NCBI GenBank assembly: GCA_030583825.1
Contig: CP129477.1
Span: 10,259-74,258, forward strand
From: Candidatus Dojkabacteria bacterium
GTDB taxonomy: Bacteria; Patescibacteriota; Dojkabacteria; GCA-002793355
Direction of reading: 5' to 3'
DNA length: 64,000 bases
This document shows positions 1-11,036 of this stretch, piece by piece. Every line of letters starts with the position of its first letter. Positions within the stretch are counted from its first letter, which is position 1. The translations under genes were made by a program, and so were the position numbers. The notes under the pieces are model-generated. The model saw only the letters and a program-made list of their open reading frames with translations. It was not told where the DNA came from and did not search any database.

Positions 1-1268
1 GAATTATCAGCTCTTAAATGCTTATATCTTCGATTTTTTAGAATTTGATCATTCTCACTTACCAAGTAATCATCAAAATCTTTAGGTTGATAATATTTTT
101 CATCCTGTAATATCGCTCTTGCTTGAATAAAGCCATATAATTCATTGTGAAACTCAACTGATAGTACTCCGAAAGCATAATAGTTAATTTCCCCCCACGT
201 TGGGCTAGAAACTCCAAACAAATCGAACTCTATACTTGAAGAGGTTTTATTAAAGCCTTTCTCTTTAGCAAATACATTCATAGAGTGCGTTGCTTTCTTG
301 TATTTCTTTAATAGATATGGAGAATGTGTAATCACAAAAATTTGTGAGTTCTCTGCAATCTTTTCAAGTGCATCAAGAAGCTTATTTTGTGCCCGTGGAT
401 GTAAGAATGTTTCAGGTTCATCGATAAAAAATATGATTGGCTTTGATATTCCCTCCTCATTTTGAGATGAAATATCAGCATATATCTGAATAATAGCTAA
501 TGCCAATGCCCGTTGCATACCTGTGCCTTTTTCAGCACTGGTGGTTGGAATACCACTGTCCGACAAGACAATATTTCCAGATTTCAAAAAATCAGTTATT
601 TCGGGAAGAGTAAAATTAAACTCTACTTGCGTCTCTCCATATTGATCAGATAATTTATTTTGGATCTGATCTTCAATCGGTTTTAGGTTATTCGCAATTT
701 CTTCAAATGTCTGTTTATGAGATTCTTCAAATCTTTGCCAGCTTTCAGCAACGGTCTTTCCTATAATTGTATTTATAATTTTCCCGCAAATTTTTGTTTT
801 TGAGAAATCCGTTATTTCTCCAGAGTCAGTATCCGCCCAGATAAATTGCGCATCAAATAGCGCTCCTATTGTTTTATCTGCACCGGTTAAATTGGTGTAC
901 CCCTTATCAGTAAAAAAATACACTTTACCAATATCTATTTCACTTGAACGCTTAATTTGTAAGATTTTCTCACCGTCCTTTTCAATAAGGGCTGATCTAT
1001 ACTTTTTCAATTCATCAGCCTCAAGCAACTCTTCGAGATCATCCCCCTTTAGCTCTATTTCAACCGAGACATAATCACCGGTATCAGCAGTTTTAGTAAT
1101 AACCTCGTCTCTATTTTTTTTTGTACGTATAAACTCAATTGCCTCAAAAACTGATGATTTTCCACAGTTGTTATCCCCAACAAAAAAATTAATCCCCTTA
1201 TCAAAAGAGATTTCATGATCTCCAGTGAATCCTTTAAAATTATGGAGTTTTATTTTTGATATATACAT
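1..1268 (-). CDS. RecF/ABC-like ATPase of the AAA_15 / OLD-family class (RloA-, GajA- or AriA-like), 5'-partial in the window. It lies directly downstream of hsdM on the same strand.
   Basis: My own minus-strand translation starts at ATG (complement of 1266..1268): MYISKIKLHNFKGFTGDHEISFDKGINFFVGDNNCGKSSVFEAIEFI (Walker A GDNNCGKSS). Later it has IIFFIDEPETFLHPRAQNKLLD...IFVITHSPYLL (Walker B / D-loop / H-loop of RecF/ABC-like ATPases). The ORF runs off the window start, which is why the ORF track did not list it. The gap to the hsdM stop is 24 bp. Confidence 0.6.
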   Translation of the reverse strand, partial: MYISKIKLHNFKGFTGDHEISFDKGINFFVGDNNCGKSSVFEAIEFIRTKKNRDEVITKTADTGDYVSVEIELKGDDLEELLEADELKKYRSALIEKDGEKILQIKRSSEIDIGKVYFFTDKGYTNLTGADKTIGALFDAQFIWADTDSGEITDFSKTKICGKIINTIIGKTVAESWQRFEESHKQTFEEIANNLKPIEDQIQNKLSDQYGETQVEFNFTLPEITDFLKSGNIVLSDSGIPTTSAEKGTGMQRALALAIIQIYADISSQNEEGISKPIIFFIDEPETFLHPRAQNKLLDALEKIAENSQIFVITHSPYLLKKYKKATHSMNVFAKEKGFNKTSSSIEFDLFGVSSPTWGEINYYAFGVLSVEFHNELYGFIQARAILQDEKYYQPKDFDDYLVSENDQILKNRRYKHLRADN

Positions 1269-1292
1269 TCCATTCTAGCTAAGCTTATATTC

Positions 1293-2864
1293 TCATTTCT
1301 TACCTTCAATATCTTTAACAATTTCCTCAATCGCAATTCTAAGTTTCTGCTGCTTTGCTACAATCCTTTCAATCTCCGCGTTCAATTCTTCAATATTAAT
1401 TTCTTCCTTTGTACTCTTCTGGTCAACATAACTTGATACCGACATATTGTAGTCATTTCCGGAAACCACTCTATTCTCTACTAGTTTTGAGAAGTACTCA
1501 CTATCTTCGCGAGAAGCATATGCCTCTAAAATCTTGGCTCTATTTTCTTCGGTTAACTTATTCTTATTTCCACCCCTTACAAACTCGGCACTGGCATCAA
1601 TAAAGAGGATTTTATTATCACTTTTACTTTTCTTTAATACCAGAATACACGTAGCAATCGTTGTTCCAAAGAAAAGATCAGAAGGAAGCTGTATAACAGT
1701 GTCGATATAATTATTTTCAATAAGATATTTTCTGATTTTCTGTTCTGCCCCGCCACGGTAAAGTACTCCAGGAAATTCAACAATAGCTGCAGTTCCACTG
1801 GTAGAAAGCCAGGATAGCATGTGCATAGTAAATGCAAGGTCTGCCTTGCTCTTGGGTGCAAGTACACCCGCGGGAGAAAATCGGGGATCATTTATCAAAA
1901 GTGGATTACTATCCCCCTCCCACTTAATCGAATATGGAGGATTAGAAACTATCGCATCGAAAGGTTCTTCGTCCCAATGCTTTGGATCAATAAGTGTATC
2001 TCCGTGAGCAATATTAAAGTGATTGAAATTGATATCATGTAAAAACATGTTAATACGGCAAAGGTTGTATGTTGTCAGGTTAATTTCCTGACCAAAGAAC
2101 CCTTGTCGGACATTTTCTTTCCCAAGTACTTTTGCAAACTTTAAGAGTAGAGAACCAGAACCACATGCTGGATCATAAACTTTGTTCACCTCTTTCTTTC
2201 CCACCGTAGTAATTTGTGCAAGAAGCTCACTTACCTCTTGTGGGGTATAATATTCTCCTCCTGACTTCCCTGCATTAGAAGCGTACATTGCCATTAGGTA
2301 TTCATATGCGTCACCGAAAGCATCAATTGTATTGTCTGTGTAGTCACCAAGTCTTAAATCACCAATAGCATCAAGAAGTTTTACTAGCTTTTGGTTTCTT
2401 TTTTCAACTGTATTACCAAGCTTATTTGAATTAACATCCAGGTCGTCAAAAAGTCCTCTTAGGTCATCTTCACTTTCAAATCCTTTGGCAGAATTCTCAA
2501 TGTTGGTAAAAACTTTTGAAAGCGTCTCATTCAGGTTATTGTCATTACGTGAATCTTTTCGAACATTAACAAAAAGCTCACTAGGCAAAATATAAAATCC
2601 TTTTTCATTAATCGTCTCCGCTCGTCCAAATTCAGCTTGTGTATCTGCAATTTTTGTATAATCGAAATCTTTATTTCCTGCTCTAATCTCCTGCCTATTG
2701 ATCTCTTTTGTAAGATTTTCACTGATAAATCTATAAAAGAGCATTCCGAGTACATATGATTTAAAATCCCACCCATCAACGCTTCCTCGTAGGTCATTTG
2801 CGATCTGCCATATAGCACGATGTAATTCTGCCCGTTCTTGTTCTTTTGTTCTTGTGTTACTCAT
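1293..2864 (-). CDS. hsdM: Type I restriction-modification system DNA methyltransferase subunit M (N6-adenine).
   Basis: 523 aa. It has an HsdM N-terminal region, motif I DPACGSGSLLL and motif IV NPPYSIKW. Confidence 0.85.
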   Translation of the reverse strand: MSNTRTKEQERAELHRAIWQIANDLRGSVDGWDFKSYVLGMLFYRFISENLTKEINRQEIRAGNKDFDYTKIADTQAEFGRAETINEKGFYILPSELFVNVRKDSRNDNNLNETLSKVFTNIENSAKGFESEDDLRGLFDDLDVNSNKLGNTVEKRNQKLVKLLDAIGDLRLGDYTDNTIDAFGDAYEYLMAMYASNAGKSGGEYYTPQEVSELLAQITTVGKKEVNKVYDPACGSGSLLLKFAKVLGKENVRQGFFGQEINLTTYNLCRINMFLHDINFNHFNIAHGDTLIDPKHWDEEPFDAIVSNPPYSIKWEGDSNPLLINDPRFSPAGVLAPKSKADLAFTMHMLSWLSTSGTAAIVEFPGVLYRGGAEQKIRKYLIENNYIDTVIQLPSDLFFGTTIATCILVLKKSKSDNKILFIDASAEFVRGGNKNKLTEENRAKILEAYASREDSEYFSKLVENRVVSGNDYNMSVSSYVDQKSTKEEINIEELNAEIERIVAKQQKLRIAIEEIVKDIEGKK

Positions 2865-2989
2865 ATTGCGTTTATTTTATTCGTTTCCAGTCAATAAATA
2901 AAGTAATTCGTTCATTTATTTATGGTATCATTACATGATACGTAAAAATCCTCAAGCTAAATAAAAAATACAGCCCCGCAAGATAAATA
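2865..2989. promoter_or_regulatory. Divergent intergenic region between hsdM and the Fic-like gene. It is AT-rich and contains a 7-bp inverted repeat (GTATCAT-TAC-ATGATAC), a candidate operator.
   Basis: Sequence ggtatcattacatgatacg at about 2925-2943. No ORFs. It is flanked by the divergent starts of two genes. Confidence 0.3.
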
Positions 2990-4090
2990 ATGTCGAGTCC
3001 ACCAGAAACAACCATGACCATCACAAAAGACATGCTCCACGATTTACTCCTTATCGAGCGATTCATCTCATCCATTCCGTCGTCGGAGCAGTATAAGCCG
3101 TTCATTACCGGTCAGCGTAAACGTACCCTACTCTCAGACCTACGCGCACTTTCTCTTTCAATGGAGCTGTCCTTTACCGATCGTGAGTTACGCAAGATTT
3201 ACATGGGGCAGGAAATTAACATGCATCAGCACCCAATCCGTGGCGTTCGCAACACAATCAGCGCGCTGCGCTATATAGATGCACAGAAAGATCTGCCCTT
3301 CACAATTTCGACAATTCAGCAGGTGAACAAGTTGCTCTGCGATGGATATACTGAGTTTTGGGAAGAAGGTAAGCTTCGTACGCCGAAAGAGTCTCCCTCA
3401 TTCGATAACGATGGATTTCGCAACCGCCCCACCACCTTTTCATTAGAGTCATTTAACTATGTAAAGTACATTCACGCATTGGAAGACATTGATCATCCGC
3501 TCTTGAAAGCTAGCTATTTTCTCTTTCACTTTCTTAAGGCGTATCCATATTCTCACTTTAACTTGCAAACTGCGCTTGTGGGCATTTATGCAATTATTAA
3601 AAATACTCCGTATGCGGCAAAGGGGTTAGTTTCTACGATGTCTGTGGCATGGGAATCGTTGTCAAAGCTGCAACTGTCTGAAAACAGCACTCAGAATGTC
3701 TCTGTAAGCTCCTGTGCGGCCGTATTTCTAAAGAGTTACGTGTCACATATGCAAAGTATAGATATGGCTCTTGAACAGCGCCACACGATCCCTGATGAGC
3801 TTCTATCAACCCTCAACGAACGCCAATTAAAGGCCCTAGGAGTCCTAAAACGCAAACGAAAACTCTCAAGGCGTAAATATGCCATTATGAACAATGTCGC
3901 TATTGCAACGGCCTTCCGTGACCTTAGAGACATGGTTGAGAAGGGGCTTGCGCTCTCTGTAGGCATTGGTCGAGGCACATATTACATGATTGCAGAGACC
4001 AAAAAGCTAGAATTGACCGAAGATACCGCCAATGATACAATGTCGTTCAGTGATGACTTTGAAGAAATTAATTCACTTGATGAGCTATAA
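2990..4090 (+). CDS. Fic/Doc-fold-like protein with a degenerate active-site motif and a C-terminal winged-HTH.
   Basis: FLFHFLKAYPYSHFNLQTALVGIYAI occupies the position and spacing of the Fic core iHPFxDGNGRxxR, but only the Asn is retained. The C-terminus KALGVLKRKRKLSRRKYAIMNNVAIATAFRDLRDMVEKGLAL...GRGTYY resembles the wHTH tail of Fic proteins. Confidence 0.35.
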   Translation: MSSPPETTMTITKDMLHDLLLIERFISSIPSSEQYKPFITGQRKRTLLSDLRALSLSMELSFTDRELRKIYMGQEINMHQHPIRGVRNTISALRYIDAQKDLPFTISTIQQVNKLLCDGYTEFWEEGKLRTPKESPSFDNDGFRNRPTTFSLESFNYVKYIHALEDIDHPLLKASYFLFHFLKAYPYSHFNLQTALVGIYAIIKNTPYAAKGLVSTMSVAWESLSKLQLSENSTQNVSVSSCAAVFLKSYVSHMQSIDMALEQRHTIPDELLSTLNERQLKALGVLKRKRKLSRRKYAIMNNVAIATAFRDLRDMVEKGLALSVGIGRGTYYMIAETKKLELTEDTANDTMSFSDDFEEINSLDEL

Positions 4091-9171: not shown

Positions 9172-9981
9172 CTAAAGGCAACAACCAGAAAATATCTCAT
9201 TGTTTTTCTTGGCAATTGATGATATCTCACACTGACAATCTTCTATTTCTGCCAGAATATCGGCATTTCTATTAAGTGTTATTAACTTCTTATTCATTGC
9301 CAATACTTCCTCATACATGCTTAGATCTACACTTATTTCCTGATTTATTATTTTCGCAGCAGTTTTATGGCCGATCCTCTTTACCCCTTTAATATTATCA
9401 CTAGCGTCTCCAACAAGAGACTTATATAAAATATATTGACCAGGAGTAATCAAAAAATCTTCTTTTAGTTGTTTTTCTGTGTAAATAATTACTTCACCTT
9501 TCTTTATTTTCAATATCTGTACCTGCGGACATAACAACTGGTAAAAATCTGAATCAAGCGAAAAAATTGTTACTTTATTACGCCCTTGCTTATTTTTAGC
9601 TAAAAAAAGCTCTGTAAATGTAGCTATGGCATCATCTGCCTCAGTCCCGGAAAATTCAAAGTGCTTAATATTTAGAAAATCTAATACTTGGGTGATAATT
9701 CCCAAATGATGAAATGGCGAGTCTGCCTCTTGCGAATAGTCTTCCTTTCGATTTGCTTTATACTCAGCGCTTTGAGTATTTCTTATCGTTGGAGATTGTG
9801 AATCCCACACAACAGCGATATGCGACGGTTGCGTCAAATCCACTGACTTTCGTAACTGGCTTAGAAACGTCGTAACAACATGTAACGGATTTCCATTTGC
9901 GGAATAAAATTTGAAAGGCACAGCATATGAACGAAACAATAGATTATGCCCATCTATGAGTAGCAAAGAATTTCTCATCAT
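9172..9981 (-). CDS. Stand-alone 5'-3' exonuclease (FEN / Pol I N-terminal-domain-like).
   Basis: LLLIDGHNLLFRSY, VVWDS, DSDFYQLL and an H3TH motif GDASDNIKGVKRIGHKTAAKI. The longest ORF extends to 10032, but the start is probably an internal Met (MMRNS). Confidence 0.8.
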   Translation of the reverse strand: MMRNSLLLIDGHNLLFRSYAVPFKFYSANGNPLHVVTTFLSQLRKSVDLTQPSHIAVVWDSQSPTIRNTQSAEYKANRKEDYSQEADSPFHHLGIITQVLDFLNIKHFEFSGTEADDAIATFTELFLAKNKQGRNKVTIFSLDSDFYQLLCPQVQILKIKKGEVIIYTEKQLKEDFLITPGQYILYKSLVGDASDNIKGVKRIGHKTAAKIINQEISVDLSMYEEVLAMNKKLITLNRNADILAEIEDCQCEISSIAKKNNEIFSGCCL

Positions 9982-10124
9982 AAGAATAAAATTACAAATA
10001 ACTTTATCTCTTATGACAAGGTCATAGTTCACAGTGAAGTGATTAGAGGTATTTTAGTGTAACAAAAAACGTAGAAATTACCAATATTCCTTGCCGCCAC
10101 ATACAGGAAAAAGTATAATCTTCA

Positions 10125-11036
10125 ATGAACTGGTTTCTCATTTCTCTTCTTCCACCTGCTCTTTGGAGCATTACTAATCATATAGATAAATATTTGCTCT
10201 CTAAGTACTTTAAAGGAGGTGGAGTTGGCGCATTGATGATCTTTTCCTCACTTATTGGGGCATTCCTATTGCCAATTATTTATATTATCCATCCGGCAGT
10301 TTTTGAAAGTATCACAATTTCTCATCTTATTATTGTCGTAAATGGATTTTTATATGTTTTGGCAATTCTTCCTTACCTTTATGTACTACAAAAAGATGAA
10401 GCAACAATTGCAGTTCCATTGTTTCAGCTTATCCCGGTGTACTCTTTTATATTAGGATTTTTAATTCTTGGAGAAACACTTTCAGTTGCACAGTTAATTG
10501 GAGGTTTCATCATTGTTACAGCATCAGTATTTATTGCTCTTGATATTACAAACATTAAAAAGATCAAATTCAAGCTGAATGTTTTCTTGCTCATGGCTCT
10601 TTCATCACTGTTGTTCTCTTTGAATTTCATATTCTTTAAGCTTTTCGCTGTTGAAGCAAATTTCTTTGTTACTAGCTTCTGGGAGTACGTTGGATTTGTG
10701 TTATGCGCTCTCTGTTTATTACTGGTAAAGAAGTATAGGCAAGAGTTTTTAGACGTGTTGAAGACAAATAGCAAAGTTGTCTTAGCAACCAATGGTATAA
10801 ACGAAGTTATAAATATTCTCGCAAAAGTATCATTTAATATCGCTTCTTTGCTTGTTCCTGTTACACTTGTTTGGATAGTAAATGGCAGTCAGCCTATTTT
10901 CGTATTTATTTATGGAGTTATTATTACTCTGTTTTTTCCTAAGCTTGGAAAAGAAAATATTTCCAAACCTGCCTTGATACAGAAAGTTATTGGAATTCTC
11001 GTGATTTTCGTTGGAACAATCGTTGTGAACCTTTAA
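10125..11036 (+). CDS. DMT/EamA-family membrane transporter.
   Basis: 303 aa with about 10 predicted TM helices and a two-repeat EamA-like architecture. Confidence 0.5.
   Translation: MNWFLISLLPPALWSITNHIDKYLLSKYFKGGGVGALMIFSSLIGAFLLPIIYIIHPAVFESITISHLIIVVNGFLYVLAILPYLYVLQKDEATIAVPLFQLIPVYSFILGFLILGETLSVAQLIGGFIIVTASVFIALDITNIKKIKFKLNVFLLMALSSLLFSLNFIFFKLFAVEANFFVTSFWEYVGFVLCALCLLLVKKYRQEFLDVLKTNSKVVLATNGINEVINILAKVSFNIASLLVPVTLVWIVNGSQPIFVFIYGVIITLFFPKLGKENISKPALIQKVIGILVIFVGTIVVNL

Follow-up and report, generated by a model that had tools for sequence, protein, structure and literature searches.

The question that this locus raises is what an ATPase gene is doing inside a restriction operon. 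At the left end of the window, the 64,000-nucleotide (nt) stretch of Candidatus Dojkabacteria DNA analysed here (contig CP129477.1), hsdM of a type I restriction-modification (RM) system is followed by a gene whose product combines an OLD-type ABC ATPase head with an unannotated C-terminal tail, and which we call the ATPase-tail protein. It is probably a back-up anti-phage module. As to how it would work we lean, with confidence slightly short of even, towards a PrrC-like single-protein back-up effector of the RM system, in which the OLD-type ATPase is joined to a HEPN-type RNase tail.

We compared the window with a public contig (L001) that matches it over 11,268 nt with 0 mismatches and reaches 4,048 nt past its left edge. 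The gene order on this contig is hsdM, ATPase, hsdS, hsdR and tRNA-Ser(CGA), with gaps of 24 nt between hsdM and the ATPase gene, 1 nt between the ATPase gene and hsdS, and 55 nt between hsdS and hsdR; the window thus holds the first one and a half of the four operon genes. The TAA stop of the ATPase gene is followed by one base and then by the GTG start of hsdS. In a consensus scan of positions 8200-15316 of L001, no terminator-like site was found on the + strand between the operon genes, the sole such site on that strand lying within hsdM. Inside the window the operon comprises the following features:

1293..2864, minus strand: hsdM, the type I RM methyltransferase subunit, 523 amino acids (aa), first gene of the operon (TIGR00497, Pfam, PADLOC)
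1269..1292, minus strand: spacer between hsdM and the ATPase gene, 24 nt, sequence GAATATAAGCTTAGCTAGAATGGA (no terminator-like site in the consensus scan)
1..1268, minus strand: embedded OLD-type ABC ATPase gene, residues 1-422 of 466 inside the window (translation, Pfam AAA_15)

HsdM scored 754 bits against the TIGR00497 hsdM model (cut-off 243) and matched Pfam N6_Mtase (4e-115) and HsdM_N as well as PADLOC MTase_I (2.6e-132); its identity to the HsdM of related operons is 78-87%. Outside the window, L001 encodes an HsdS of 220 aa (Methylase_S, 6e-13) and an HsdR of 1021 aa with HSDR_N, ResIII, T1R_D3 and EcoR124_C (1e-66) domains, scoring 1183 bits against PADLOC REase_I, and the EcoR124_C domain on HsdR assigns the RM system to type IC.

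An earlier reading of the window, made from its letters and open reading frames (ORFs) and called here the sequence-only reading, had described an hsdM with NPPY and DPACGSG motifs and an ATPase 24 bp downstream, and this is borne out by the ORF map, TIGR00497 and Pfam. It had also proposed a defence module embedded in the RM locus, a view upheld by the order hsdM-ATPase-hsdS-hsdR with its 24-nt and 1-nt gaps and no terminator-like site, and by the presence of the family in type I, II, IIG and III RM systems elsewhere; the counter-case that it named, an unrelated ATPase set off by a terminator, does not hold in the consensus scan. Its remark that hsdS and hsdR are missing is true of the window, but both genes lie directly past the left edge on the identical contig. 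The description of the ATPase gene as 5'-partial was wrong: the start ATG (1268-1266, 24 nt past the hsdM stop) and the N-terminus are present and the ORF leaves the window at its left end, so that it is the 3' (C-terminal) end that is truncated.

The full-length protein (P0001, from Candidatus Dojkabacteria, titled “AAA family ATPase”) has 466 aa, is 100% identical and extends 44 residues beyond the window. Its head (about 340 aa) is, on profile matches and motifs, an OLD-type (AAA_15) ABC ATPase. The RecF/ABC-like Walker A (GDNNCGKSS), the Walker B with D-loop (IFFIDEPETFLHP) and the H-loop (ITHSPYLL) are all present as the sequence-only reading had described them, and the conserved positions, taken over 40 homologues, are as follows:

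1155..1178, minus strand: Walker A, G31-D-N-N-C-G-K-S38 (G31, N33, N34, G36 and K37 invariant)
510..539, minus strand: ABC signature-like motif, S244-A-E-K-G-T-G-M-Q-R253 (S244, E246, T249, M251, Q252 and R253 invariant)
411..437, minus strand: Walker B, I278-I-F-F-I-D-E-P-E286, followed by the D-loop (D283, E284, P285 and E286 invariant)
318..332, minus strand: H-loop, I313-T-H-S-P317 (T314, H315, S316 and P317 invariant)

With all motifs intact, the head looks catalytically competent. Pfam returned AAA_15 (1.9e-34) and AAA_21 (6.9e-24). The top PADLOC model was Old (1.2e-48), but over profile positions 2-346 of 578 only, with further matches to AriA (1.6e-32 and 3.4e-25) and GajA (about 1e-23); together these bear out the AAA_15/OLD-type class that had been proposed. 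NCBIfam scores, in bits against the cut-off, were 64/500 for PtuA, 43/420 for MAD3, 42/172 for recF, 24/300 for restrict_AAA_1 and 37/847 for Rad50. A tblastn search reached P2 old at 3e-14, and a Foldseek search with the whole-protein AlphaFold2 (AF2) model recovered SMC/Rad50 heads (1e-12) and, more weakly, PtuA and GajA, with nothing informative on the tail.

The tail can be described from its own conservation and predicted structure. Two of its features lie in the window, and the second conserved motif, R436-N-I-I-H-H-P-E-N444, is encoded 42-68 nt past the left edge:

3..233, minus strand: unannotated C-terminal domain, in-window part, residues 346-422 (no library match; AF2; profile)
132..149, minus strand: first conserved tail motif, H374-N-E-L-Y-G379 (conservation over 135 representatives; in predicted helix 371-388)

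The Toprim or DUF4435 tail that had been suggested for the leftward extension is absent: the protein ends at residue 466, and residues 335-466 had no Pfam match at E up to 10. Neither a search against the PADLOC models nor a search with the tail profile against PDB sequences returned a match, and Foldseek with the tail model gave a best E of 0.5 in PDB (template-modelling score at most 0.30) and of 0.04 in BFVD. The AF2 model of the tail alone has a pLDDT (predicted local distance difference test) of 89 and begins with a short helix and a long one (371-388), continues with two further short helices and a beta-hairpin, and ends with helix 431-440, a loop and helix 451-465.

Conservation was measured over 135 diverse representatives that share little other identity. 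H374, E376, L377, Y378, G379, R436, H440, H441, P442, E443, N444 and S457 are conserved at 93-100%, and the subset H374, E376, R436, H440, H441, P442, E443, N444 and S457 at 96-100%; single positions reach 96% (H374), 97% (E376), 99% (L377), 93% (Y378), 95% (G379), 100% (R436), 80% (N437) and 100% (H441). In a divergent subclade (L049, L051, L052, L059, L063 and L067), which includes Gemella, Streptococcus caprae, Actinomyces and Lactobacillus helsingborgensis (R-N-x-I-D-H-P-G), RNxIHHPEN is replaced by RNxIDHPG/E: H440 becomes Asp and E443-N444 become Gly-Asp/Glu, with R436, N437 and H441 unchanged. This variation reduces the universal core of the tail to R-N-x-x-x-H plus an upstream H-x-E/D. 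The neighbours of these copies are mostly housekeeping genes (HAD hydrolase, IGPD) and not RM genes.

Searching 1.84 billion representatives with the tail profile yielded 934 clusters at 50% identity, nearly all with the tail at the extreme C-terminus of proteins of 450-530 aa. Every longer carrier that was checked (553-769 aa) proved to be the same AAA_15 ATPase with larger inserts, without any new fusion, and a word-indexed search with the same profile yielded short fragments for the most part and added no further architecture. Since every tail found stands behind an AAA_15 ATPase, the tail seems to occur solely as an ATPase fusion. One uninterrupted ORF of 1835 aa in Candidatus Enterococcus wittei (L045 3945-9452) places an N-terminal HTH_3 domain and about 1280 residues without a Pfam match ahead of the ATPase and tail, and represents a giant fusion unless the frame is mis-joined.

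Could the tail be a HEPN RNase? The hallmark of HEPN domains is an Rx4-6H motif in which the arginine is followed by a polar residue (N, D or H); a conserved acidic residue in helix 2 and a variable insert between helices 2 and 3 also belong to the definition (PMC3710099). The tail carries R436, N437 and H441 in this spacing, the divergent subclade keeps RNxxDH, and the further features are all present when judged by sequence and predicted secondary structure. In the AF2 layout, compared by topology and not by three-dimensional superposition, helix 371-388 holds E376 and is followed by an insert, by helix 431-440 ending in H440/H441, by a loop and by helix 451-465; H374 and E376 thus share one predicted helix and R436-H441 stand at the end of the next-to-last one. 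The string RNKKHH in the KEN RNase domain of human IRE1, as seen in PDB sequences, is of the same type as the tail motif. The universally conserved residues of the tail, H374-x-E376 and R436-N437-x-x-x-H441, look like the metal-independent RNase site of HEPN domains. Fusions of ABC ATPases to HEPN domains have been listed before (PrrC, RloC, APECO1_4465 and ERFG_01251), often within RM operons (PMC3710099).

The genomic context of the family was surveyed with one genome per species, yielding 79 distinct loci. They come from bacteria of the candidate phyla radiation (CPR: Saccharibacteria, Moranbacteria, Paceibacterota, Peribacteria, Uhrbacteria, Yanofskybacteria and Daviesbacteria), from streptococci (Streptococcus mitis, oralis, infantis, pseudopneumoniae, gordonii and suis) and from Gardnerella, Bifidobacterium, Campylobacter, Neisseria, Enterococcus, Lactobacillus, Verrucomicrobium and others. 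An RM gene of type I, II, IIG or III lies within 100 bp of the ATPase gene at 38 of the 79 loci and within 6 kb at 48; both are minimum counts, since many of the contigs are short and the seed proteins were solely our own. Twenty-two loci carry an ATPase of at least 60% identity, and at 17 of these, type I RM genes are found no more than 6 kb away. The complete loci among them (L004, L006, L012, L017 and L023) also have the order hsdM-ATPase-hsdS-hsdR, with hsdM 66-83% and hsdR 75-82% identical and, in most of them, 0-3 nt between the ATPase gene and hsdS.

Other arrangements occur as well. In streptococci the ATPase gene starts 18-28 nt after the mod-res genes of a type III system; at L015 it is flanked by an EcoRI-like methylase and a GmrSD_N/HNH type II endonuclease, and at L056 and L060 it comes after a type IIG/ISP-like enzyme. 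At L008 the flanking genes are an EcoRI-like methylase and a DUF2130 gene (9451-10887), the latter being also found directly after the ATPase gene at L010 (9466-10749) and, beyond hsdR, about 4.3-5.9 kb downstream of it at L005, L006 and L028. This recurrent DUF2130 gene has no PADLOC match, and its product may be a further uncharacterised defence partner. In some Saccharibacteria the ATPase gene follows an orphan methylase beside a recombinase, or follows AbiEii: at three loci the gene for this nucleotidyltransferase toxin lies 14-33 nt upstream in place of an RM gene (L024 6983-7987, L026 1141-2127 and L027 692-1696). One of the 58 upstream neighbours in related loci is a RhuM-family protein (3.9e-96), and at L011, L013, L016 and L031 a stretch of 1.1-1.6 kb, space enough for an extra gene, separates the end of hsdM from the ATPase gene downstream; both observations echo the RhuM/PrrC-like/RM neighbourhoods described in PMC3710099.

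Some copies stand alone. On the conjugative IncFIB plasmid pA2508-emrE of Klebsiella quasipneumoniae (L083 7001-8464), a copy of 34% identity that retains its motifs is flanked on each side by an ISNCY transposase gene and has a TIR-domain gene at a distance of about 2 kb, and a second solo copy is found on pLH1 of Lactobacillus helveticus. As these plasmid copies have no fixed neighbours, one protein probably holds both sensor and effector.

OLD-type ABC ATPases together with nucleases form back-up layers of RM-like systems (PMC12839542; bioRxiv 10.1101/2024.01.29.577857). On the PrrC-like reading, the ATPase head would be sensor and switch at once, and we infer that ATP binding dimerises the heads and thereby pairs two tails into an active nuclease. 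ABC/SMC-type heads all bind ATP and dimerise, and HEPN RNases such as IRE1, RNase L, Csm6 and Cas13 need pairing to build a composite site. Activation would be restrained in normal cells and licensed once the co-encoded restriction enzyme, which the protein may contact physically, has been inhibited or overwhelmed, or once phage DNA or a phage protein has been detected; the observed part of this step is the genomic coupling to RM genes. The active tail would then cut RNA, possibly tRNA, so that translation and phage growth would stop and the infection would be aborted. Given that the family is attached to four RM types and also occurs alone, a signal that does not depend on a particular RM enzyme (phage DNA ends, DNA mimics or nucleotide pools) is more plausible than strict PrrC-style masking.

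Several results weigh against this reading. The tail was recognised as HEPN by none of the structure and profile comparisons (Foldseek in PDB and BFVD, Pfam, hhalign): a Pfam search with 59 tails, at E up to 10, brought up a marginal HEPN_RiboL-PSP match (E 0.031) for just one of them, and hhalign of the tail against the human IRE1 KEN domain returned a probability of 0.5%. As Foldseek, which for a plain four-helix bundle would usually return numerous helical neighbours, did not return even generic ones, the tail model does not appear to be such a bundle, which suggests that its fold may differ. Because of this silence of structure and profile comparison, we treat the HEPN identity of the tail as the leading hypothesis and not as a result. 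With four different kinds of RM partner, moreover, PrrC-style masking by one RM enzyme is hard to generalise. Finally, the C-terminal extension of NsnB, PtuA and AriA is an adaptor that docks a separate effector and is not itself a nuclease (PMC12065111).

The surroundings of the operon bear on its origin. Its G+C content is 32-38%, against 40-47% in the flanks (the neighbouring gatCAB region), and tRNA-Ser(CGA) begins 45 nt past the operon end (L001 15232-15317); the low G+C and the tRNA boundary suggest a horizontally acquired island at a tRNA site. hsdS (L001 11403-12065, just left of the window) is half the usual size and has one target-recognition domain, the HsdS proteins of related operons having about 400 aa. 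With a gap of just 55 nt up to hsdR, no remnant of a second domain exists, and such a protein would have to work as a homodimer on a symmetric site. On the other side of hsdM the window holds:

2865..2989, no strand assigned: intergenic region 5' of both hsdM and the divergent Fic-like ORF; the operon promoter is presumed to lie here (ORF map)
2990..4090, plus strand: ORF of 366 aa, divergent from hsdM

No + strand promoter-like site was found upstream of hsdM in the consensus scan of L001 8200-15316. The 366-aa ORF has a G+C content of 44-47%, above that of the RM operon, and a sub-threshold Fic match only (E 0.004), lacks the HxFx(D/E)GNGR motif and was found in 0 of the 79 related loci. Fic/Doc-like genes have been reported to adjoin PrrC-like RM loci (PMC3710099), so that the ORF might be a degenerate relative.

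Which other explanations could account for the same observations? The back-up or abortive-infection role could be kept with a tail that is a hydrolase of new fold, such as a metal-dependent nuclease working through H374, E376, H440, H441 and E443 on DNA or another substrate. That the confident AF2 tail model has no PDB or BFVD neighbour and no profile link to HEPN speaks for this, as does the number of conserved His and Glu residues, five being more than a HEPN site needs, and published OLD-type ABC ATPases are mostly paired with DNases (Toprim, HNH, PD-(D/E)xK; PMC12839542). The divergent subclade, however, changes H440 and E443-N444 and keeps R436, N437 and H441, which fits an Rx4H motif better than a His-cluster metal site, and we consider such a hydrolase unlikely. 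Nor do we expect the tail to be a docking or regulatory domain, with the protein an accessory subunit of the RM system (in restriction control, recruitment of the RM nuclease or sensing of anti-restriction) and the RM enzyme or an unlinked protein as effector. The C-terminal extensions of NsnB (DUF3696), PtuA and AriA do bind partner effectors (PMC12065111), the 1-nt gap before hsdS suggests co-translation with RM subunits, and adjacency to RM genes is the dominant context. Yet the solo plasmid copies, placed between IS (insertion sequence) elements, have neither an RM nor a nuclease partner, the polar residues conserved in the tail stay constant across unrelated partners (HsdS, HsdR, Res, GmrSD_N/HNH restriction endonuclease, DUF2130), and invariant, buried-type, catalytic-looking residues are atypical of a docking surface.

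We give a small chance to a selfish addiction or stabilisation module that rides mobile RM islands by post-segregational killing and has no direct anti-phage role. The low G+C of the operon and its end at tRNA-Ser would fit this, as would the near-identical operon architecture across unrelated phyla and the copies that adjoin an AbiEii toxin, recombinases or IS elements; against it, no conserved antitoxin-like partner gene was seen, and the tested ATPase-effector fusions of this class act in phage defence (PMC12839542; bioRxiv 10.1101/2024.01.29.577857). A housekeeping ATPase for DNA repair (RecF/RecN/SMC-like) or ABC transport that merely adjoins hsdM, one of the cases by which the sequence-only reading would have been overturned, is very improbable. 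The weak N-terminal matches to SMC_N, recF and Rad50 are what could be said for it; recF reached 42 of 172 bits and Rad50 37 of 847, there is no coiled coil and no transporter partner, the patchy distribution tracks RM genes, and the gene is translationally coupled within the hsd operon. On these scores and this context a repair or transporter role is effectively excluded.

What the family would add depends on the nature of the tail. Defence modules with an ABC ATPase nested in restriction systems are already known (PrrC, PARIS, the HEC candidates and OLD-type ATPase plus nuclease pairs). We found no paper that describes the ATPase-tail family, and an in-silico description may already exist within a classification of ABC ATPases; the family is uncharacterised, large (934 clusters at 50% identity) and strongly conserved. 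Its members carry no annotation beyond “AAA family ATPase” or the misleading “OLD family endonuclease”, are missed by the PADLOC models, and occur in medically relevant genera as well as in CPR bacteria with tiny genomes. It is possible, though we rather doubt it, that the tail is a new nuclease fold, or a HEPN domain so divergent as to found a new family, and that the ATPase-tail protein is a portable single-gene “restriction guard” serving type I, II, IIG and III RM systems or acting alone. Were this so, it would constitute a new and widespread anti-phage system missing from current defence catalogues, ranging over CPR bacteria, oral streptococci, Streptococcus suis, Gardnerella, Neisseria and Klebsiella plasmids. 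Should the tail be an ATPase-gated RNase, the protein would be a fused one-gene counterpart of PrrC that serves several restriction types, would offer a testable handle on how cells detect failed restriction, and would supply a new effector domain for annotation pipelines.

How, then, does the protein compare with known systems? By the features that define them it is not a member of PrrC, RloC, OLD, PARIS, Gabija, Septu or Menshen; in this respect the sequence-only reading, which had named OLD, GajA, AriA and the anticodon-nuclease-associated ATPases as examples of the class, is not supported. The ATPase-tail protein resembles PrrC in being one polypeptide with an N-terminal ABC ATPase and a short putative C-terminal effector with a HEPN-type R...H motif, in the second-line logic of defence that this implies and in being embedded in a type IC hsd operon, that of EcoprrI in the case of PrrC (PMC3710099). 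PrrC cleaves tRNA-Lys at the anticodon. Its nuclease is masked by the type IC enzyme and freed by the phage Stp peptide (PMC3710099; bioRxiv 10.1101/2024.01.29.577857). The ATPase-tail protein differs from PrrC in that its ATPase is of the OLD/AAA_15 type and that its family is also found on type II and type III systems and alone. The gene stands between hsdM and hsdS and family members have 466-490 aa, whereas prrC stands between hsdS and hsdR and PrrC has about 400 aa. AAA_13, which we take to be the Pfam family that holds PrrC, was unmatched at E up to 10, and the 25 best PADLOC models, down to 2.4e-16, did not include PrrC.

RloC, in which a Rad50-like ABC ATPase and a C-terminal HEPN anticodon nuclease form one protein, has a comparable layout and can act without linkage to RM genes (PMC3710099), as the solo copies here might; it has a long coiled-coil and zinc-hook insert, whereas the AF2 model of the ATPase-tail protein is without a long coiled coil, the longest helix of the insert region being 186-210. 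The OLD nucleases (P2 Old, classes 1-4) share the ATPase head, but the protein has no Toprim domain: Old profile positions 347-578 are unmatched and the chain ends about 120 residues after the head. With Gabija it shares the GajA-like ATPase; it has no Toprim and the locus no UvrD-like GajB, hsdR being the sole helicase gene. In PARIS an OLD-type ATPase (AriA) senses the anti-restriction protein Ocr (PMC12839542; bioRxiv 10.1101/2024.01.29.577857), which is a likeness in ATPase type and a conceptual link to anti-restriction sensing. Here, by contrast, ATPase and putative effector form one chain, hsdM and hsdS flank the gene, and the locus has no AriB, DUF4435 or Toprim gene; DUF4435 and Toprim are also not among the 25 most frequent Pfam families listed for 58 upstream and 65 downstream neighbours of the ATPase. 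For Septu and Menshen, the locus has no PtuB HNH or NsnA/NsnC neighbour and PtuA scored 64 against 500 bits; DUF3696 had no match in P0001 and is not among the 25 Pfam families listed for 59 tails. The type I-embedded TgvAB of V. cholerae is GmrSD-like and unrelated. HEC-01 to HEC-04 (Payne et al. 2024) and the BREX/RM-like OLD-type back-up modules are alike in that a defence gene nests in a restriction-type system of several genes and an ABC ATPase is the presumed sensor, but they pair the ATPase with a Toprim, NERD, PIN, HNH or PD-(D/E)xK domain, none of which the tail matches. In its way of working the ATPase-tail protein would thus be most like PrrC and RloC, and it shares its ATPase clade with OLD, GajA and AriA.

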